33,372 bases of DNA from the NCBI GenBank assembly GCA_029856125.1, contig JAHQWJ010000068.1, positions 1 through 33,372 on the forward strand, written 5' to 3'. Within the stretch, counting starts at the first letter, position 1. The number at the start of each line of letters is the position of its first letter. Position numbers and translations under genes: made by a program. This stretch comes from Promethearchaeia archaeon (GTDB taxonomy: Archaea; Asgardarchaeota; Lokiarchaeia; Sigyniarchaeales; SOKP01). This document shows, piece after piece, positions 20,369 to 29,307 of the stretch. The notes under the pieces were generated by a model. It had not been told where the DNA came from. It was given only the letters and a program-made list of their open reading frames with translations, and ran no database searches.

Positions 20369-23068
20369 TTATAATTCCTTATTTTTTTCTTTAATTACGG
20401 CTTGTGCTGCTGATATTCTCGCAACAGGTATCCTAAATGGTGAACATGACACATAATTTAAACCAATCCTGTGAAAGAACTCTACGCTTTTTGGCTCGCC
20501 ACCATGCTCCCCGCATATTCCGATTTTTAAATCGGGTCTAGTCTCCCTCCCCAATTTGACAGCTATTTGCATTAATTTTCCTACTCCATCTTGATCAAGT
20601 GTTTCAAACGGATTTCGCTCAAGAATTTCCTTATTCAAATAAACTGGAATGAACTTACCTTCAGCGTCGTCTCGACTGAAACCAAATGTCATTTGCGTTA
20701 AATCGTTAGTTCCAAAGGAGAAAAATTCCGCTTCCATAGCAATCTCGTCTGCGGTGAGAGCTGCCCTCGGAATTTCAATCATCGTTCCAAACTTGTACTT
20801 TAAATCCACGCCGTAATCTTTAATTGTCTCTTCTGCTATTTCAAGTAATTGAGCTTTCACGTACTGAAGTTCTGATATCATGCCAATAAGGGGGATCATT
20901 ACTTCAGGTTTGACCTCAATGCCTTGAAGTTTGAGTTCGCAAGCTGCTTGAAAAATAGCCTTAACTTGCATTTCGTTGATTTCTGGCCAGACAATTCCAA
21001 GACGGCAACCTCTAAGACCCATCATGGGATTTTCCTCCGATAAGGAGCGGATTAATTTGATAACTTTCTTCTTCGTTTTTATTTCTTTATCAAGAGGGCT
21101 TGTTTCTAGTAGAGATTTTGATAGAGAATTAGTCATTTTCAATTCTTGATACTCTAATAAAACGGTGGATAATTCGGGCAAGAACTCATGCAAAGGGGGA
21201 TCAAGTAACCGAATTGTCACTGGTTTACCTTCCATAATTTTAAAGATTTCTAAGAAATCTCCTTTTTGCATTGGCAAAATTTTATTTAATGCGTCTTGAC
21301 GTTCTTCCATGGTTTGAGCCATTATCATCTTCTGAACAACAGGTAATCTCTCTTGTGACATGAACATATGTTCCGTTCTCGTTAATCCTATACCTTCGGC
21401 GCCGAATTCTAACGCTTTCTTAGCGTCTATAGGAGTATCGGCATTTGCTCGAACACCCATGGTTCGAACTTCGTCAGCGATTTCTAATAATTCTAAGAAT
21501 TCACCCTTTATCTCGGGTTCTATTAATGGAACTATTCCTTCTATTACGCGTCCCGTTGTTCCATCAATTGTAATATATTTGCCTTCTTTAATAGTAGTCT
21601 CTGCAACCTTAAATTCTCTAGCTTCCTCATCAATTTCAATATCTTGAGCTCCAACAATTGCTGGTTTACCCATTCCTCTTGCAACAACGGCGGCATGAGA
21701 TGTTTTTCCTCCAAATTGAGTCAAAACGCCACTAGATGCATATAAACCGTGAACATCCTCAGGTTTAGTTTGAGGTCGTACTAAAATTATCTCTTTTTCT
21801 TGAGAATTAGCCAACTCTTCAGCGCGATCAGAATCAAATATAGCGATCCCAGACACAGCACCTGGTGAAGCGTTAATTCCTTTTGCTAAAACACGCACTA
21901 TAGCATTCTCATCTATGCTTTTAAATAGAAGTTTCGATATTTTATTTGGATCGATACTCATAATTGCTTGTTCCCGAGTTATTAAACCTTCTTTAACCAT
22001 ATCTACTGCGATTTTAACTGCTGCTGAAGGCGTGCGTTTTCCATTTCTAGTTTGTAGTATGTAAAGGACTCCATTTTCTATTGTGAACTCAATATCTTGC
22101 CTATCTTTATAGTGGTTTTCGAGTTTAACCATTGTTTGCTTCAAATCTTTATAAATTTCTGGAAATTCTTTGGCAAGTTCTTCAAGCTTCTTAGGGGTTC
22201 GAATTCCTGCGACTACATCTTCTCCCTGTGCATTGGTTAAATATTCTCCAAACTTTATATTATCTCCATTGGAAGGATCCCGCGTAAATGCAACTCCTGT
22301 GGCGGAATTCTCTCCTTTATTTCCAAATACCATAGCTTGTATATTAACGGCTGTTCCTAAATTAGGAATATTAGAAATCTTTCGATATGTAATTGCTCGC
22401 TTATTGTTCCAAGATTTAAATACTGCTTCTATTGATATAAATAGCTGTTTAAAGGGATCTTGTGGGAATCGTGAACCAATTTCCTTTTCGTATAAGGCTT
22501 TATAATCAGTAATCACTTTTTGTAAATCCTTGTCTTTTAAATCTGTATCTTGAGCAGTTCTAGAGATCGCACGCTTATATTTATCAAGTATTCTTTCAAA
22601 TTTCTCATCCCCGATCCCCATGCAAACGTCACCAAACATTTGAATAAATCGTCTCCAAGAATCATAGGCAAATCGCGTATTACCTGTCAGTTTTGCCATT
22701 CCTTTAATGGATTCATCGTTTAACCCTAGATTTAAAACGGTGTCCATCATGCCCGGCATTGAAAAGGGCGCCCCGCTTCTTATGCTTAACAATAACGGAT
22801 TATTCTTATCGCCAAAAATCTTTCCCGTGGCTTTTTCTAGGCTTTTCAAATGTTCTAAAACCATAGGCTTAATTTGTGCCATTATTTTTTCAGGATCTTT
22901 AAAATAAAGCAAGCAAGCTTCTGTGGTTATAGTAAAACCCGGAGGAATATTTAACCCCAAATGAGTCATTTCTCCGAGATTTGCACCTTTTCCTCCAAGT
23001 AAGTTCTTTAACTCTTTTCTACCTTCGCTAAAATCGTAGATATACTTGGGTGTATCAGTAGAGGTCAT
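20369..23068 (-). CDS. ppdK: Pyruvate, phosphate dikinase
   Basis: LGGKGANLGEM, RSGAPFSMPGMMDT, AQGEDVVAG, GGKTSHAAVVARG (catalytic His), GTMIEIPRA, FSFGTNDLTQ and GICGEHGG. Confidence 0.98.
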   Translation of the reverse strand: MTSTDTPKYIYDFSEGRKELKNLLGGKGANLGEMTHLGLNIPPGFTITTEACLLYFKDPEKIMAQIKPMVLEHLKSLEKATGKIFGDKNNPLLLSIRSGAPFSMPGMMDTVLNLGLNDESIKGMAKLTGNTRFAYDSWRRFIQMFGDVCMGIGDEKFERILDKYKRAISRTAQDTDLKDKDLQKVITDYKALYEKEIGSRFPQDPFKQLFISIEAVFKSWNNKRAITYRKISNIPNLGTAVNIQAMVFGNKGENSATGVAFTRDPSNGDNIKFGEYLTNAQGEDVVAGIRTPKKLEELAKEFPEIYKDLKQTMVKLENHYKDRQDIEFTIENGVLYILQTRNGKRTPSAAVKIAVDMVKEGLITREQAIMSIDPNKISKLLFKSIDENAIVRVLAKGINASPGAVSGIAIFDSDRAEELANSQEKEIILVRPQTKPEDVHGLYASSGVLTQFGGKTSHAAVVARGMGKPAIVGAQDIEIDEEAREFKVAETTIKEGKYITIDGTTGRVIEGIVPLIEPEIKGEFLELLEIADEVRTMGVRANADTPIDAKKALEFGAEGIGLTRTEHMFMSQERLPVVQKMIMAQTMEERQDALNKILPMQKGDFLEIFKIMEGKPVTIRLLDPPLHEFLPELSTVLLEYQELKMTNSLSKSLLETSPLDKEIKTKKKVIKLIRSLSEENPMMGLRGCRLGIVWPEINEMQVKAIFQAACELKLQGIEVKPEVMIPLIGMISELQYVKAQLLEIAEETIKDYGVDLKYKFGTMIEIPRAALTADEIAMEAEFFSFGTNDLTQMTFGFSRDDAEGKFIPVYLNKEILERNPFETLDQDGVGKLMQIAVKLGRETRPDLKIGICGEHGGEPKSVEFFHRIGLNYVSCSPFRIPVARISAAQAVIKEKNKEL

Positions 23069-23219: not shown

Positions 23220-24023
23220 TTAAGAGAAAATCTCCAAAACATCCCAGATACCATTGATTATAAAATCAGGTCTTTCTGATTTGCTTTTATTAATCATTTC
23301 TAAAGTTGTCTCTCCAGAAAGCACGCAACAAGTAGTAACTCCAGCGTCTAGTCCCATCTTTATATCTGTGTACAATCTATCTCCAAACATCACTGCATCT
23401 TGAGGCTTTACTTTGATTTCTTTAAGTTTAAACAAGAGCATTTCTTTGTTTGGTTTTCCAAAAACAACTGGCATTCTTTCTGTTGTTTTATATAAGAGGG
23501 CGGCAATACCTCCAGCATCAGGTATAAATCCATCCTCTGTAGGACATTTATCGTCCAAATGAGTGGCGATATAAGGAAGACCTTTTTGGAGTAAATATGA
23601 TGCCTTTGTCAACCGATTATAGGTTAATTCTTGATCAAAAGCGAGAACAATAATTTCTGGGTTACTCTCGCTTAAAATGAACCCTTCTCCAATAAACTCT
23701 TTTTTAAGAGACTCATTTCCTAGTAAAAAAACAGTATTATAGTTATTTTGCTTTAGATAACTGATGGTAGGATGTTGAGAGAGTATTACATTCTCTCGGG
23801 TTGCATTCAAGTTTAATTTATTTAATTTCTTAAGGTAATCAGAGGTTGATTTGCTTGAATTGTTTGAAAGAAAAAAGTAACGTTTCCCTTGCTCTTTAAG
23901 AGCTTTTAGTAGTTCAATCACACCATCAAAAAGTTTATTACCTAAATAAAGTGTCCCATCCAAATCAAAGAAAAATACTTCTTTTCTTTTTAATTCAGTG
24001 ATACTTCTATTTACGGAGCTCAT
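23220..24023 (-). CDS. HAD-IIA family hydrolase (NagD-like)
   Basis: FDLDGTLY, LSNNSSK, GKP, GDRLYTDI and VLSGET motifs. Confidence 0.93.
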   Translation of the reverse strand: MSSVNRSITELKRKEVFFFDLDGTLYLGNKLFDGVIELLKALKEQGKRYFFLSNNSSKSTSDYLKKLNKLNLNATRENVILSQHPTISYLKQNNYNTVFLLGNESLKKEFIGEGFILSESNPEIIVLAFDQELTYNRLTKASYLLQKGLPYIATHLDDKCPTEDGFIPDAGGIAALLYKTTERMPVVFGKPNKEMLLFKLKEIKVKPQDAVMFGDRLYTDIKMGLDAGVTTCCVLSGETTLEMINKSKSERPDFIINGIWDVLEIFS

Positions 24024-24107: not shown

Positions 24108-24794
24108 CTAATTACGATAAGGAACTGTTTGTATTTTCTCATCACATAATGTTAGCCAAGCTTTATATTTAAAAGTATATTTACCTTTAACTAATGGGCT
24201 ATAACCCGTTACTTCTTCAAATAGAATTCGTTTTATCTCAGAATCTATTTGTTTGTACCACATATTACTAGATCTCCTATCTACCAATATGCAAAGTGTT
24301 ATTAATGAAATAACTACAACCAGAATTATTACAAATGTCTGCAAAGAAGTTAAGAACATGCTAGAATAAATAGTAATTATAATGATTGGAACAAGACTGA
24401 AATAACAATAAATGCAATAATCACCCATATCACTGATAAAAGATTGTGTTTTTCCTATGCTGTTATTATTTTCGGTTATTGTAAGTAATAGCCATTTTCG
24501 ATAACCGGTCTTTAACTTCCTTTTTCTAGATGCTTCTAAACCAGTCTCCTCGTAATATTTCTTTTGATTTAACTTTGTATCTGCTATAGTACAAATCTTT
24601 TTTTCTTTGAGTTCTAAATAGAGAAGTAAAGAGAATATACAGCTAATGATACTAGCTACATATGTAAGTGGATGAATATCAAATCGTTTTTCGAGAAATA
24701 CTATTACAAACGCGAAGATAAGTGTGAAACAGATATAAGAGAAGATTTTTTTTAGTTTTGATTTAAAGAATAATCTTAAAAATAATCGAAGCAT
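24108..24794 (-). CDS. Hypothetical 4-TM membrane protein with internal duplication
   Basis: 228-aa ORF; two pairs of hydrophobic helices, each followed by an ExTG...YxxWL motif. Confidence 0.7.
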   Translation of the reverse strand: MLRLFLRLFFKSKLKKIFSYICFTLIFAFVIVFLEKRFDIHPLTYVASIISCIFSLLLYLELKEKKICTIADTKLNQKKYYEETGLEASRKRKLKTGYRKWLLLTITENNNSIGKTQSFISDMGDYCIYCYFSLVPIIIITIYSSMFLTSLQTFVIILVVVISLITLCILVDRRSSNMWYKQIDSEIKRILFEEVTGYSPLVKGKYTFKYKAWLTLCDEKIQTVPYRN

Positions 24795-24860
24795 TTTTTC
24801 TTGTTTATTTCTTCTATATTGCTGGTTTAAAGTAAAGAAAAAAAAGTAAAAATTTAAGAA

Positions 24861-24915: not shown

Positions 24916-26367
24916 TTATGGTTTTGCTTGCTCTACTTCTGTTCCGCACCATTTACAAAATTTATCGTCCTGTGTTAATTTACTACGACAAAATGAACAT
25001 GTTTTCGACTTTATCGGAGTTATTATGGTTGATTCCTTAGTGCTCCTTCCTTCAATTTTACCTCCACAACTCGGACAAAAGTGAGCGTCAGGTCGGAGAG
25101 AATTTCCACAACGAATGCAGTTAGTATCTACTTTACTAGGTTTTTTTATAGCTGATTTTGCGGGAGCTACTTTAGACGATGGTTTTGCTTTTAATTTCTT
25201 CTGTCCTCTTCTGGCCAAGAGAGCAACAACAATCACGATTCCAACAACAACTATGAGAACAATTAATATAGGTTGAATATCTATCCATCGATCAATAGAG
25301 GTAATTCCCGTATCGTAGGTCACATCAAAAGTAATTGTAGTTGATTCTTCTGGAGAAAGCATCGGGTCAAAATATACGAAGAAATACCACGTTCCATCAC
25401 TTGTAACGGTAAATGTATTTTCAGGGATTGAATCCGCTCCTTCAATATAAAAATCTGCGGCTGATAAGTCAATCACATTCGCAGCAGAATAGTCAATTGT
25501 AAAATTAACTACGACTGTGGATACTCCTTCGTTGTACCACACAACGTAATAATCTTTCGCGGAATCCACATTATGTACTCCAGTATCTGATAACACATCG
25601 TTTTCATCGATATAAAATGAAGGACTACCACCTTGATTCCACTCGTAAAGAGCTTGGCCGCTTGCTATAAAGAAATCAACTTGCCCTGATGCGTTAAAAT
25701 CGTAATTTATTGTTGATCCTGGTTTTAAATAATATCCAACGTATTCGTATTGATTTTGCAGAAGATTAAGCTGATCAGAATCGCTCCCAACTTTCGTAGT
25801 AGTAGGTAAGGACTCAAAAGGTCGATCCCAGATAGCAAAGCTAATTAAGCTATGTGAGGATTGTATGGAATATGTTATGTCATTCCCACCATTTATATCT
25901 TCGTATTCGTACCAATATTCGTTAAAGTATAGGGTTTCAGTCGAGCGATAATTCACAGTACCATTTGCATCTACATTGCTAAAAGGAAACCACATCGCAA
26001 CTCCAAAAAGAGGTAGCAATATTAGTCCTAAGACGATTGCTATCGTTATTCCACCTCCAACATAGACAGGGGAATAGTACCACGGTCTATACCACCGTCC
26101 AGCCCACCAGGGGTTATACCACCAGTGTCTATACCACGGATACCCATACCCGTAGTACCTCCTTCGAGGTCTATAGTACGAGTGACGGTAGGGTCCACTT
26201 GGTGCTCTTGAGGTTACTCGCCTTGCTCCAGTTCTTCCAAAGGGCGTTCCTGAAGATCTTGTACCACCCATTCGGAATGCTGCTGAGCCTCCGCGAAAGC
26301 CTCCTCCGCGAAATCCACCCCCACTAAACCCTCCGCCTCTAAAACCACCGCCACCACCGCGAGGCAC
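24916..26367 (-). CDS. Uncharacterised two-TM protein: RGG/aromatic low-complexity N-terminus, beta-rich ectodomain, two C-terminal zinc ribbons
   Basis: G3FR repeats at aa 1-35; Y/W/R/P-rich aa 60-103; TM about aa 105-128; acidic beta-rich aa 130-362; TM about aa 365-385; two CxxC-x10-CxxC motifs at aa 417-474. GTG start with GAGGTG SD inside the upstream gene. Confidence 0.85.
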   Translation of the reverse strand: MPRGGGGGFRGGGFSGGGFRGGGFRGGSAAFRMGGTRSSGTPFGRTGARRVTSRAPSGPYRHSYYRPRRRYYGYGYPWYRHWWYNPWWAGRWYRPWYYSPVYVGGGITIAIVLGLILLPLFGVAMWFPFSNVDANGTVNYRSTETLYFNEYWYEYEDINGGNDITYSIQSSHSLISFAIWDRPFESLPTTTKVGSDSDQLNLLQNQYEYVGYYLKPGSTINYDFNASGQVDFFIASGQALYEWNQGGSPSFYIDENDVLSDTGVHNVDSAKDYYVVWYNEGVSTVVVNFTIDYSAANVIDLSAADFYIEGADSIPENTFTVTSDGTWYFFVYFDPMLSPEESTTITFDVTYDTGITSIDRWIDIQPILIVLIVVVGIVIVVALLARRGQKKLKAKPSSKVAPAKSAIKKPSKVDTNCIRCGNSLRPDAHFCPSCGGKIEGRSTKESTIITPIKSKTCSFCRSKLTQDDKFCKWCGTEVEQAKP

Positions 26368-26369
26368 TT

Positions 26370-27380
26370 TTATTTAGGCACCTCGTTAGCAGATTCTTTT
26401 TGACGAAAAAAATAATCCCTATAAATAGCTGCTATCACTAAAATCATAGATATTATTGAAAATGTCAATCCTACGCCATCAACGGTTACATTCGGAGTTG
26501 GAACAGCGATCGCAAATGCGACACCTAATAGAATCCAGTTAATAATTAGAAACACAACAAATAAAATAGGTAATAAAAATTGTACCAAAAATCCAGTTTG
26601 AATGTTGCGTCCTCGAGAATAACTAGAGAATATTATTGAAAAAAGCGCAAGGATGCCGAATACAACTATCAAAACACTAAAGATAACAATAATTAACCAA
26701 ATTATTCCGTTAGTATTAATAAGATTCACAAAAGGAACTAGAAAATTAATGCCTCTTGCTTCAAACAATCCAAAAAGGACAATTTGTCCCTCAATTTCAG
26801 CTATCCCGAAAAAGCTAAGTAGATCAGCGGGGTTTCCTGAAAAGAAGCCAAATATTCCAACAAGTGGAAAAATCACTCCTAAAACAAATGCAATAATTGT
26901 GCAAACCGTTGCGAACCAAAATTCGGCTGATCTCGTATCAGATACAGGAATTAAGCCTACTTCGTCATAATCTTCATCAGGAATATAACTCCAGCAATCT
27001 TGTATAGTGCATACTCCAACCAGCTTCTCATTCTCTACTACTGGTACGACATTGACATTTAAATCTCGCATTCTTGCAAAAGCTTCAGTCACAGGATCAT
27101 CAAGGGACATGGGTTTAATCTTATACATAGTAGAAATCACCATTTCTTCTTTTGGATCGTCTCCTTTAGCTACAACATTTTGAATTATATCAAAATCAGC
27201 TATGACTCCGAGAACTTTATCAGACTTTTCTTCGACTACAACTAAATCTGGCACACCTAACTCTTTCATTTTTTTTGCTGCTTCTTGAATAGTCGCATTA
27301 GAATTTATTACACCGTATTCATCGTCAATTACCAAATCCTTTATAAAATATTCTTTTTTAGTTAAGCCCAAATTCATCAT
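26370..27380 (-). CDS. CBS-pair domain fused to C-terminal four-TM domain
   Basis: ATIQEAAKKM...VLGVIADFDII and VTEAFARM...VPVVENEKLVGVCTIQD form a Bateman module (aa about 12-132). Four hydrophobic helices lie at aa about 154-178, 226-252, 264-292 and 303-320. Confidence 0.85.
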   Translation of the reverse strand: MMNLGLTKKEYFIKDLVIDDEYGVINSNATIQEAAKKMKELGVPDLVVVEEKSDKVLGVIADFDIIQNVVAKGDDPKEEMVISTMYKIKPMSLDDPVTEAFARMRDLNVNVVPVVENEKLVGVCTIQDCWSYIPDEDYDEVGLIPVSDTRSAEFWFATVCTIIAFVLGVIFPLVGIFGFFSGNPADLLSFFGIAEIEGQIVLFGLFEARGINFLVPFVNLINTNGIIWLIIVIFSVLIVVFGILALFSIIFSSYSRGRNIQTGFLVQFLLPILFVVFLIINWILLGVAFAIAVPTPNVTVDGVGLTFSIISMILVIAAIYRDYFFRQKESANEVPK

Positions 27381-27539
27381 TTTTTATGTTAGATTTGTTA
27401 TTTATAAAACAGATTAAAGTAACTATTAAAATTAACTATAGTCCAATTATTAATTCTTCTAGTAAAATTAAAAATTCTCTAAAGAAAATACATAAGAAAA
27501 TTAATAATATATAAGATTAAAAAAAAAGAGTAGTTTGAA

Positions 27540-27998
27540 TTAATAAAATTCAGTCCCTTCTATTATAGTGGTAGAAACGACTAGTTCCTGCGCGGCCTTA
27601 GTTGCTCGCATGACTTTCGCCATGTTTCCTACGAGTTTAAATTTACCTGCCATTAAACCCTGAATTGGATCGAGTTCTTGTTTCAAAACCTTTACCCAAT
27701 TATCGTATATTCCTGAAAATACAAATTCTGCGCCGATTTTTTCTCCTTCTTTTAAAGGTCGTGGCTCAGAATTAGGGGGTAAAATTTCGAATTCTTCTCC
27801 CTCCTTTAGGACTTTACTGCCTGTGCAGTCTCCTTTAAATAATCCAATAAACATTGTTATTTTATGGTCCAAATTACCGCTAGGTTCAACCAAGAAAATG
27901 AAATCACCCGTCCACCAAGAAGCTGCCGCTTTGTAATTGGCATTATTGTTTAAAGCTTTCACATAGGCTTCAGCCCATTCCTCTGAAAATACTTTCAT
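27540..27998 (-). CDS. SCP2 sterol/lipid-binding domain protein
   Basis: FSEEWAEAYVKALN...W.GDF...AEFVFSGIYDNWVKVLKQELDPIQGLMAGKFKLVGNMAKVMR. Confidence 0.88.
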   Translation of the reverse strand: MKVFSEEWAEAYVKALNNNANYKAAASWWTGDFIFLVEPSGNLDHKITMFIGLFKGDCTGSKVLKEGEEFEILPPNSEPRPLKEGEKIGAEFVFSGIYDNWVKVLKQELDPIQGLMAGKFKLVGNMAKVMRATKAAQELVVSTTIIEGTEFY

Positions 27999-28152
27999 AT
28001 CTCACACTCTCTATTATATTAATAAAATTTACTTCTATTATGATTAGTATTACTTCTTTTTATTTGAAAGTAATTAAATCTAAAATTGAGTGAAATGATA
28101 AAGAATAGTTATAGATGGATGTTTATTAAGATAAGTTATAAAAAAAAAGAAA

Positions 28153-29307
28153 TTATACTCCTACGCCAATGGTATTTCCTATACCAGCAACTATAATCTT
28201 TGCTCCTTTCTCAGTACGCTTCCGAATCCCCATTTTAATATTTTCTACAATAGGATGAACGCTTTTGGTAATTGGTCGCGACATTGTTGTTATCGCATTT
28301 TCTAATGATTGCCTGCAGATAACAGCGTCAATAGGAATAGCTTTTTTGCTTGAAGATTCCTCGATATAAAACTTTTCAACGCCAATTCCTCCAATAGCGG
28401 CACCAACTCCTATTGCGATTGACCCAGTTTTATCTCCAGAAAATTTAAGACCAGCATCGATCATTATTATTCGAGATATGGATTCTCCATGTTCTTCGAT
28501 TAATTTTTTAATTGCAGTACCTGGTTTTCCAACAGTTCCTCCAGGTCCCTCGGCTCGCACAACATATATTGTTCTACCTTCAAAAGCAACCTCTTGATAT
28601 ATTGTATCCTTTGCGATTTCAATGGCTTCAACATCGTCACTATTTGAAACATCTCTTACAAAACTTCCGGCAACTAAAGGTCCAAGGGCGTCTCCAATTG
28701 GGCTTCCTTCAGAAAAAGCTTTTGTAGCGTGGTAGTACGATTTACCCATTGCTAAAATCATAGTCATCTGCATGGAAATCTGCATTAAGACAATGTACGA
28801 TTTAGACTTTTTTCCTAATATTAAGAAGTGTTTGACTAAACGATAAACATAATCAACAGCCATAGTAGCTTCAAGGACATTTTCTAAATTTTGAGCTTCT
28901 TTAGTTCCTGGTTCAACATTTGGAGCTATACCTACTATTTCATCTTTGAATCTTTCATCCCTTACATTAATGATGTGATCAATTTTTGGAATTATGCCAT
29001 AAGGATCAAGACTAACTGGTGTAATAGCGACGAAAGTTAAGAAGTTTTCAAGCTTGAGCATTAAATCCTTATCTGTTTCTTTTTTGTCAGTGTATTTTCT
29101 AAAATTCGAAAGTAAAATCTGTTTACACTCGTCATCCCATTTTTTGAGTTTTTCCAAACCAGTTTCGATCTCTCTTGCTGAGCGCCAGGCTTGGAGTTTT
29201 GTACCATAAAACATAGAAACAAATATTAAGGCAAACCATAACAAATTAAAAATCAATCCGAGAGGATCTGTTTCCGTTTGGCCGAATTGCATTATTTGAA
29301 TAATCAT
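28153..29307 (-). CDS. DUF1512 family archaeal membrane-anchored protein
   Basis: N-terminal TM; PVSLDPYGII, PIGDALGPLVA, AEGPGGTVGKPG, IIMIDAGLK, GVGAAIGGIGVEKF and C-terminal GIGNTIGV. Confidence 0.85.
   Translation of the reverse strand: MIIQIMQFGQTETDPLGLIFNLLWFALIFVSMFYGTKLQAWRSAREIETGLEKLKKWDDECKQILLSNFRKYTDKKETDKDLMLKLENFLTFVAITPVSLDPYGIIPKIDHIINVRDERFKDEIVGIAPNVEPGTKEAQNLENVLEATMAVDYVYRLVKHFLILGKKSKSYIVLMQISMQMTMILAMGKSYYHATKAFSEGSPIGDALGPLVAGSFVRDVSNSDDVEAIEIAKDTIYQEVAFEGRTIYVVRAEGPGGTVGKPGTAIKKLIEEHGESISRIIMIDAGLKFSGDKTGSIAIGVGAAIGGIGVEKFYIEESSSKKAIPIDAVICRQSLENAITTMSRPITKSVHPIVENIKMGIRKRTEKGAKIIVAGIGNTIGVGV

Follow-up and report, generated by a model that had tools for sequence, protein, structure and literature searches.

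An Asgard gene pair, inherited as a unit, encodes a CBS-containing predicted tetraspan protein and a putative hairpin membrane protein with an ectodomain related to eukaryotic APD proteins

A contig of 33,372 nucleotides from a Promethearchaeia archaeon of the Asgard lineage (GenBank assembly GCA_029856125.1, JAHQWJ010000068.1), which was analysed as a whole and is referred to as the window, carries two adjacent minus-strand genes that are inherited together across Asgard archaea. Their products combine a pair of CBS motifs, a predicted tetraspan membrane domain and an ectodomain that is homologous to the lumenal domains of eukaryotic APD1-4 proteins. On balance, we consider it probable that this bicistronic operon encodes a two-subunit membrane complex, in which the product of the upstream gene (A) would serve as regulatory subunit and the product of the downstream gene (B) as hairpin receptor or adaptor of an APD-like superfamily. 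As proposed in an earlier sequence-only reading of the same DNA, neither protein finds a full-length match to a characterized system in Pfam or NCBIfam, and no report of the pair or of a link between Asgard and APD proteins was found in literature searches. The further claim that both architectures resist assignment did not stand, since the ectodomain of B can be placed with APD proteins and around a GOLD-type core, and the membrane half of A models as claudin/TARP-like. The features of the locus are listed below with their positions in the window.

27399-27409, minus strand: TATA-like TTTTATAAATA, about 24 nt 5' of the ATG of A (sequence)
26370-27380, minus strand: gene A, 336 aa, CBS pair and four-helix membrane domain (open reading frame, ATG start)
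26976-27353, minus strand: CBS pair (Bateman module) of A, residues ~10-135 (Pfam, PDB profile search)
26406-26945, minus strand: predicted tetraspan domain of A, residues 146-325, four helices, with loops 1 and 3 contributing short extracellular strands (AF2 model)
26379-26384, minus strand: Shine-Dalgarno-like GAGGTG for B within the final codons of A, 11 nt 5' of the start of B (sequence)
24916-26367, minus strand: gene B, 483 aa, predicted hairpin membrane protein with cytosolic N and C termini (open reading frame, GTG start, model)
26059-26367, minus strand: cytosolic N-tail of B, residues 1-103, MPRGGG at the very start, then FRGGG repeats followed by a Trp/Tyr/Arg/Pro-rich segment (composition, alignment, model)
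25300-25989, minus strand: extracytoplasmic all-beta domain of B, residues 127-356, related to the lumenal domains APD1-4_N and APD1-4_M (model, profile search, hhalign, Pfam)
25471-25800, minus strand: predicted GOLD-type beta-sandwich core, residues ~190-299 (VIA-align, Foldseek)
25195-25299, minus strand: second transmembrane helix (TM2) of B followed by the basic stop-transfer sequence ARRGQKK (model helix 357-391; conserved in the alignment)
24943-25119, minus strand: double zinc ribbon (DZR) of the cytosolic C-tail of B, with two C-x2-C...C-x2-C units (PF12773, alignment)
24836-24852, minus strand: runs of five and eight T, 65-80 nt past the stop of B (sequence)

The organization of the locus confirms the co-oriented genes separated by 2 bp, with GAGGTG inside the end of A, that had been noted from the sequence. 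The stop codon TAA of A occupies positions 26370-26372 and is followed by the intergenic bases 26368-26369 and the start of B at 26367, with A and B being read in different frames. The TATA-like box ahead of A suggests a short-leader or leaderless transcript encompassing both genes, and the T runs downstream of B constitute a possible archaeal terminator. An orphan membrane gene located further downstream (24108-24794) was rejected as third member of the unit; its homologues are found near 21 of 80 loci, all from close relatives, and are absent from the 23 diverse loci described below.

Conservation of the gene neighbourhood across Asgard genomes had been proposed as a check of the pairing, and it bears out the adjacency of both genes. 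In a set of 23 diverse loci, A is located directly 5' of B in 22, with a gap of 0-5 bp, the sole exception being a sequence with masked N, and GAGGTG or GGAGG precedes the start of B by 6-12 nt in 22 of the 23. The proposed translational coupling thus extends to a conserved coupled unit. The same arrangement is found in all 78 further loci with sufficient upstream DNA, and two complete genomes, 4.36 Mb and 6.04 Mb in size, also seem to contain the pair with the gene order maintained. Across the diverse paired loci, identity decreases to 36-41% for B and 38% for A. The pairing is thus far beyond chance. Homologues of A, numbering more than 480, are exclusively Asgard, and more than 290 Asgard homologues of B show identities of 52-89%. 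Full-length B and the tetraspan form of A are present in an identical set of lineages (families f1, f2, f3 and f16), and within f1 they occupy the same genera. Because they are inherited together, A and B very likely act as one unit, as judged from their genomic distribution. Family f15, which does not have the tetraspan form, contains a stand-alone CBS-pair protein of 135 aa (61.6 bits), whose gene ends 0-4 bp 5' of an APD-like paralogue, which identifies the CBS unit as the conserved partner. Most APD-like paralogues are found without a CBS neighbour. A candidate for a fused A-B form (P0241, 875 aa) turned out to be a TPR fusion to the ectodomain.

The AlphaFold model of B consists of a disordered tail (residues 1-103), a first transmembrane helix (100-126), an all-beta ectodomain (137-352, pLDDT about 90) and TM2 (357-391). 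The relationship of its ectodomain to APD proteins emerges from profile searches, where the matches contain the Pfam domains APD1-4_N in 27 of 30 and APD1-4_M in 23 of 30 cases and display a layout with two flanking transmembrane helices as in B. The source organism is known for one of these matches, Pellita catalonica (Amoebozoa), a EukProt entry. An alignment of the B family with the APD-type proteins by hhalign yields a probability of 99.7% and an E-value of 3e-26 over 203 columns, a score that is inflated because the APD-type alignment was drawn from matches of the Asgard profile itself. In direct comparisons at E<=0.01, PF16040 detects 19 of the 46 members of the family, with a best E-value of 8.7e-7, and B of the window scores 25.9 bits (E 7.9e-6), below the cut-off of 27. 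For PF16041 (APD1-4_M), there is no direct Pfam match in B of the window or in the 46 family members, and the match obtained by hhalign continues through A3 column 252 and spans the APD1-4_M region of the partner proteins. A word-based search with the APD-type alignment, whose candidate list was filled by glycine-rich words, recovered 12 metagenome proteins. A PDB sequence-profile search with the ectodomain gave nothing useful, NCBIfam contained no match to B, and the ESM Atlas provided only low-score leads (0.85-0.87), among them an archaeal cluster with EMP24_GP25L at 19%. At the level of the predicted structure, the core of the ectodomain is of the GOLD type. It superimposes on p24beta1 (5azw_B) with a Z-score of 13.5 and an rmsd of 1.4 over 87 of 93 residues, with Z-scores of 12.9 for p24gamma2, 12.5 for TMED1 and 12.1 for the SEC14-like SPF (VIA-align), and Foldseek aligns the ectodomain with p24 GOLD domains at TMt values of 0.58-0.83 and a probability of 1.0.

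The cytosolic C-tail of B contains the double zinc ribbon PF12773 (46.7 bits; cut-off 27.3), whose eight cysteines are all invariant in the 46 homologues. Zinc ribbons are generic modules, a property that counts against the specific reading of the A-B pair. The homology of the ectodomain to APD lumenal domains, together with the PPxY motifs at which the tails of APD-type relatives end, would be in line with B being a proto-APD adaptor of the ubiquitin type, in which the zinc fingers couple the ectodomain to Asgard machinery for ubiquitin-like ligation or sorting, with A tuning the system to the energy state. Longer B homologues of f16 further carry an extra C-terminal cysteine finger that is weakly RING-like, although the respective matches to zf-RING_4 (16-18 bits) are well below the cut-off of 27. 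However, a Pfam search for a RING in the tail of B of the window retrieved zf-C3HC4_3 at an E-value of 0.012 only; each ribbon is a C4 unit of its own, with about 25 residues between the two, instead of part of a cross-brace, and genes encoding E1 or E2 enzymes are not linked in the loci inspected. We thus regard a role in ubiquitin-type ligation as doubtful. With respect to the two-subunit complex that we favor, the PPxY tails of APD-type relatives and the RING of the plant founders fit a cytosolic tail that would recruit partner proteins.

Protein A starts with two tandem CBS motifs (PF00571 in two stretches, 55.5 bits; cut-off 24), which match stand-alone archaeal and bacterial CBS pairs in a PDB profile search with E-values down to 3.7e-11. 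The sequence G-V-C-T-I-Q-D in CBS2 fits the ribose-binding pattern G-h-h-T/S-x-x-D, and CBS1 contains an alanine at the T/S position. The pair probably binds an adenosyl ligand such as AMP, ATP, SAM or similar. This part of the AlphaFold model is of low confidence (pLDDT <50). The tetraspan region is predicted with pLDDT values of 85-95 and includes short strands at positions 180-182, 201-203, 207-210, 213-216 and 298-300. It models as a claudin/TARP-type tetraspan at the level of the fold only. VIA-align superimposes it on TARP gamma-3 with a Z-score of 11.3 (159 residues, rmsd 3.8), a value within the chance range of helical bundles, and on MP20 and claudin-15 with Z-scores of 10.6 and 9.8. 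The best Foldseek matches are all TARP or GSG1L proteins, with TMt values of 0.56-0.65 and E-values of only about 1e-3. Searches with the tetraspan region provided no Pfam match and no useful PDB sequence-profile match, and for A the ESM Atlas gave only low-score leads (0.80-0.82).

Where a CBS pair is fused to a membrane domain, it typically regulates ion transport, and A might accordingly be envisaged as CBS-gated channel or transporter, whose oligomer forms a pore with four helices per subunit as in MgtE, CNNM/CorC or ClC, with B as accessory or gating subunit. The strong conservation of its transmembrane domain (72% mean column identity over A) and a ClcB-like entry among the weak and otherwise generic CBS matches in NCBIfam could both be read in this way. 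Conversely, sequence comparisons link the transmembrane domain to no transporter family, structural comparisons place it closest to auxiliary proteins of the claudin/TARP type instead of channels, and the CBS partner in f15 has no membrane domain at all, which together render a transport function improbable.

A final alternative concerns the N-tail of B, whose first 103 residues comprise 25 Gly, 18 Arg, 13 Tyr and 7 Trp, with four RGG and two FRGGG motifs and not a single Asp or Glu within residues 1-130. Eukaryotic GAR regions that bind RNA typically have such a composition, and the sequence-only reading had proposed that the tail binds RNA or drives condensates at the inner face of the membrane under control of an extracellular input and the energy state, a claim that was not supported and that we likewise consider improbable, as many tail positions are invariant in the alignment of 46 homologues, which would not usually be expected where composition alone matters, as no RNA-related genes are linked in the neighbourhoods inspected and as APD-type relatives keep the glycines and aromatics and largely replace Arg by His, so that RGG-type RNA binding is not a conserved property of the tail.

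Returning to the two-subunit complex, the GOLD-cored beta-sandwich of B would face outwards and probably bind a protein or glycan ligand, and the RGG/aromatic N-tail and the double zinc ribbon would serve as probable docking surfaces for partner proteins. By analogy to TARP and claudin-fold proteins, which reside beside their partners, the tetraspan domain could anchor A next to the two helices of B in a physical complex. Depending on the ligand presumably bound to its CBS pair, A would then act on the cytosolic parts of B, with the direction of regulation running from A to B, and the pair might sense an extracellular input. As a speculative and rather unlikely extension, the pair might descend from a prokaryotic forerunner of the eukaryotic APD/PPxY adaptors that tie a lumenal GOLD-type domain to ubiquitin ligases, acting in Asgard archaea as cargo or quality-control receptor wired to the energy state, with A as first claudin-fold protein outside eukaryotes. 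Should the reading of the pair hold, the Asgard repertoire would gain a further membrane protein of the eukaryotic-signature kind, and the almost unstudied APD family a tractable prokaryotic relative that has a built-in regulatory partner. It would likewise be unexpected if an experimental structure were to confirm a claudin-type fold in archaea.

Compared to known systems, the model of A resembles the claudin/PMP22/TARP superfamily, which is regarded as eukaryotic, in its four helices, in a long first and a short second extracellular loop that add short beta-strands and in the cytosolic location of both termini. Unlike these proteins, it contains a CBS pair fused to its N-terminus and shows no sequence similarity to the superfamily, no W-GLW-C-C signature and no extracellular cysteine pair in loop 1. 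With CBS-regulated membrane proteins such as MgtE, CNNM/CorC, ClC and site-2 protease, A shares the combination of a cytosolic CBS pair and a membrane domain and at least one CBS motif with a ribose-binding signature, whereas Pfam, NCBIfam and PDB sequence searches linked its membrane domain to none of these protein families. The predicted core of B superimposes on p24beta1, p24gamma2 and TMED1 with rmsd values of 1.4-2.1 over 87-102 residues. In contrast to p24/TMED proteins, which are of type I and carry a coiled coil and a COP-binding tail, B embeds this core in a larger beta domain between the two transmembrane helices of a hairpin, and it has no sequence match to EMP24_GP25L (PF01105). 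GOLD domains have also been noted in archaeal adaptin-like loci (PMC10936438).

B is further related to the APD proteins of eukaryotes (Arabidopsis APD1-4, PF16040/PF16041). The plant founders of this family are, going by its name, RING-bearing membrane E3 ligases; other relatives have no RING and end in PPxY tails, and PPxY motifs are docking sites of Nedd4-type ligases. The cytosolic output thus differs between both groups, with two zinc ribbons in B and RING or PPxY motifs in the APD family, as does the N-tail, which is rich in Arg in B and rich in His in APD-type relatives, and the operonic CBS protein of B has no known eukaryotic counterpart. Conversely, both groups share the succession of a transmembrane helix, a lumenal or extracellular beta domain, a second transmembrane helix and a cytosolic tail, and the motifs Y-x-Y..YL..GS, F(F/Y)I..G...W and D-x-YY-x-V-x-x-N. 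In several APD-type relatives, the N-tail is rich in glycines and aromatics and starts with 'MP-x-GGG' as in B. The link between B and the APD family thus exceeds a single domain, since the whole topology and the unusual N-tail are common to both.

The two genes are encoded next to each other on the minus strand of the window, with a Shine-Dalgarno-like motif for the second gene located inside the first:

26370-27380, minus strand: gene A, an open reading frame of 336 amino acids coding for a protein with a CBS pair and a membrane domain of four transmembrane helices (tetraspan).
24916-26367, minus strand: gene B, an open reading frame of 483 amino acids with a GTG start, coding for a protein with an RGG tail, two transmembrane helices (TM1 and TM2) flanking an ectodomain, and a double zinc ribbon.
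26379-26384, minus strand: GAGGTG motif within the last codons of A, 11 nt before the start of B.

The TAA stop of A (26370-26372) is followed by two bases and then by the start of B at 26367. In Pfam searches, A contains a CBS pair (55.5 bits) and B a double zinc ribbon (46.7 bits), with a match of B to the APD1-4_N family remaining just below threshold (25.9 bits vs a cut-off of 27). The first 103 residues of B include 25 Gly, 18 Arg, 13 Tyr and 7 Trp; acidic residues are absent from its first 130 positions. The sequence-only reading had described the two genes correctly. A TATA-like box about 24 nt before the ATG of A and T-runs 65-80 nt past the stop of B would fit a bicistronic unit. An SCP2-like protein (152 residues) and a DUF1512 N+C protein (384 residues) are encoded upstream of the pair (27540-29307, minus strand) and a pyruvate phosphate dikinase-like gene downstream (20369-23068); none of these genes is conserved beside the pair in the other genomes inspected.

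The proposed adjacency of A and B was borne out in other Asgard genomes. We found more than 290 homologues of B and more than 480 of A, and all named ones are of Asgard origin. At 23 loci drawn from diverse genomes, A immediately precedes B in the same orientation, and across these loci the identity drops to 36-41% for B and 38% for A. A gap of 0-5 bp is found at 22 of them, where the start of B is also preceded at 6-12 nt by a motif of the GAGGTG or GGAGG type; the sole exception contains masked N. Among 80 further loci, A precedes B in all 78 with enough upstream DNA, three of which were flagged merely for longer RGG tails. A survey of 400 genomes from this phylum places full-length B and the membrane domain of A alone (profile A5) in the same four Asgard families (f1, f2, f3 and f16) and, within f1, full-length B and the tetraspan co-occur in the same genera; the remaining families match B via generic zinc ribbons alone. 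The genes flanking the pair vary from locus to locus. Our analysis establishes the coupling of the two genes, their co-inheritance and their domain content.

At 53 of the 80 loci, a HAD-IIA phosphatase gene (Hydrolase_6/Hydrolase_like; 23220-24023, minus strand, in the window) accompanies the pair in the same orientation, either about 890 bp downstream of B (27 loci, an arrangement that includes the window) or 180-260 bp upstream of A (26 loci), where its identity to the copy in the window is only about 24%. Of the loci whose sequence extends 1300 bp or more upstream of A, a single one lacks this gene, which may constitute a loosely linked third member. An orphan membrane protein of 228 residues (24108-24794, minus strand), encoded 121 bp downstream of B, is placed outside the conserved unit because homologues are nearby in 21 of the 80 loci, in close relatives alone, and in none of the 23 diverse loci.

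We searched a profile of the TM1-ectodomain-TM2 region of B built from the 23 loci (A3) against 1.84 billion representative proteins, which yielded 200 proteins at E<=1e-3. Beyond the B family, these include paralogues of archaeal type whose tails carry zinc ribbons; a Gly/Arg-rich N-terminal tail is present in some of them and absent from others. Further matches cover profile positions ~70-287 and contain APD1-4_N and APD1-4_M, domains of the eukaryotic APD1-4 membrane ligases, above threshold. In an alignment of 30 such proteins (A4), APD1-4_N is detected in 27 (best E 1e-48) and APD1-4_M in 23 (best E 2e-40). The match of A3 to A4, which spans 203 columns and includes common motifs, is rated by hhalign at 99.7% (E 3e-26), a score that is inflated because the A4 proteins had been chosen by A3. 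An independent check came from the curated APD1-4_N model PF16040, which matches 19 of 46 Asgard members at E values down to 8.7e-7; zinc ribbons apart, no other family recurs among them. As judged from sequence profiles, the ectodomain of B is homologous to that of APD. The APD-type relatives share the two-TM layout of B, and several start with 'MP-x-GGG' and continue with a Gly/His-rich and then a Trp/Tyr-rich stretch ahead of TM1. One of these relatives, from the amoebozoan Pellita catalonica, is listed in EukProt; the others reside on metagenome contigs of 0.3-2.2 Mb. On a 321-kb contig, three APD-type genes (327, 422 and 389 residues; L031:8-6367) with uninterrupted reading frames are clustered with intergenic gaps of 300-900 bp and a GC content of 43%.

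AlphaFold models of both proteins were based on shallow alignments of related sequences. The model of B contains a disordered tail (1-103), TM1, an all-beta domain (137-352, pLDDT about 90), TM2 and the ribbons, and the positive-inside charge distribution places both tails in the cytosol. Residues ~190-299 superpose on the GOLD beta-sandwich of p24 (5azw_B, Z 13.5, rmsd 1.4 Å, 87 of 93 residues), followed by p24gamma2 (Z 12.9), TMED1 (12.5) and SPF (12.1), values that exceed those of the generic jelly-roll matches ranked below; Foldseek likewise retrieves p24 GOLD domains (TMt 0.58-0.83).

The CBS pair of A, modelled with low confidence, resembles stand-alone archaeal CBS pairs and carries a G-h-h-T-x-x-D ribose-binding pattern in its second motif. 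In an exhaustive structural comparison, the membrane half (pLDDT 85-95) matches best to TARP gamma-3 (159 aligned residues, rmsd 3.8 Å) with a Z of 11.3, within the range that helical bundles may reach by chance; MP20, TARP gamma-8 and gamma-7, claudin-15, -19 and -4 and a Cav gamma subunit are also among the top matches. Independently, Foldseek places TARP and GSG1L chains alone at the top (TMt 0.56-0.65, E ~1e-3), and, as in claudins, extracellular loops 1 and 2 of the model contain short strands. Since Pfam and PDB sequence searches gave no match for this half, which also lacks a claudin signature, and in light of the chance range of Z, we treat this likeness as a resemblance of fold and not as membership. 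Weak matches to the tetraspan profile (E 7e-10 to 3e-5) in reading frames of ~200-217 residues (L121:1819-2460, minus strand; G062:C115; G080:C632), too short to also accommodate a CBS pair, may be distant stand-alone tetraspan paralogues.

A second APD-like paralogue family (represented by P0334, APD1-4_N 35.9 bits) is present in f3 and in f15, a family without the A-B pair. In three f15 genomes, this paralogue is preceded by a stand-alone CBS-pair protein (both genes together at L116:2860-4437, plus strand; L118:2509-4203; L115:25-1405). In two of them, the CBS protein is a complete reading frame of 135 residues that scores 61.6 bits with PF00571 and is 35-37% identical to the CBS region of A; in the third, it is cut by the contig end. 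Its gene ends 0-4 bp ahead of the APD-like gene. The latter encodes 365-389 residues with an Arg/Gly/Ser-rich N-terminal tail and, where scanned with Pfam, one zinc ribbon. The coupling of a CBS-only protein to an APD-like paralogue points to a CBS link that predates the tetraspan. The CBS pair would accordingly act on the cytosolic parts of B, with the tetraspan as an added membrane anchor. No CBS neighbour was found beside the other APD-like paralogues inspected. One metagenome contig carries four APD-like/DZR paralogues of 450-487 residues in tandem (L030:2356-8685, plus strand), which lack a CBS neighbour and belong to the group without a Gly-rich tail.

On balance, we slightly favour A and B as a two-subunit receptor or adaptor. 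B would bind something extracellular via its APD/GOLD domain and offer two cytosolic docking tails; the CBS pair of A would read an adenosyl ligand and modulate these tails, and its tetraspan would pack against the helices of B. Physical contact, ligand binding and output are what we infer. A proto-APD adaptor of ubiquitin type is conceivable but rather improbable, and a CBS-gated channel with B as accessory subunit is unlikely. Least probable is the RNA-binding or condensate function put forward in the sequence-only reading. Two observations weaken it: Arg is changed to His in the tails of APD-type relatives, and many positions of the N-terminal tail of B are invariant.

Public databases name A a 'CBS domain-containing protein' and B a 'zinc ribbon domain-containing protein', and our literature searches revealed no publication that describes the pair or links Asgard proteins to APD. 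The pair combines an archaeal APD-like protein carrying a new output domain with a new, obligatory CBS partner. The RING, which is a defining feature of APD, is absent from B; in longer B homologues of f16 (P0242, P0255 and P0277; 550-564 residues if complete), the two zinc ribbons are followed by an additional Cys-rich finger at the C-terminal end, and its RING-like Pfam scores are below threshold (zf-RING_4, 16-18 bits vs a cut-off of 27). Owing to the homology of the ectodomain, the two-TM layout of its relatives and the N-tail start that several of them share, B probably represents an archaeal branch of an APD-like superfamily that differs in its cytosolic output, with zinc ribbons in place of the Pro-rich C-terminal tails with PPxY-type motifs of the APD-type relatives.
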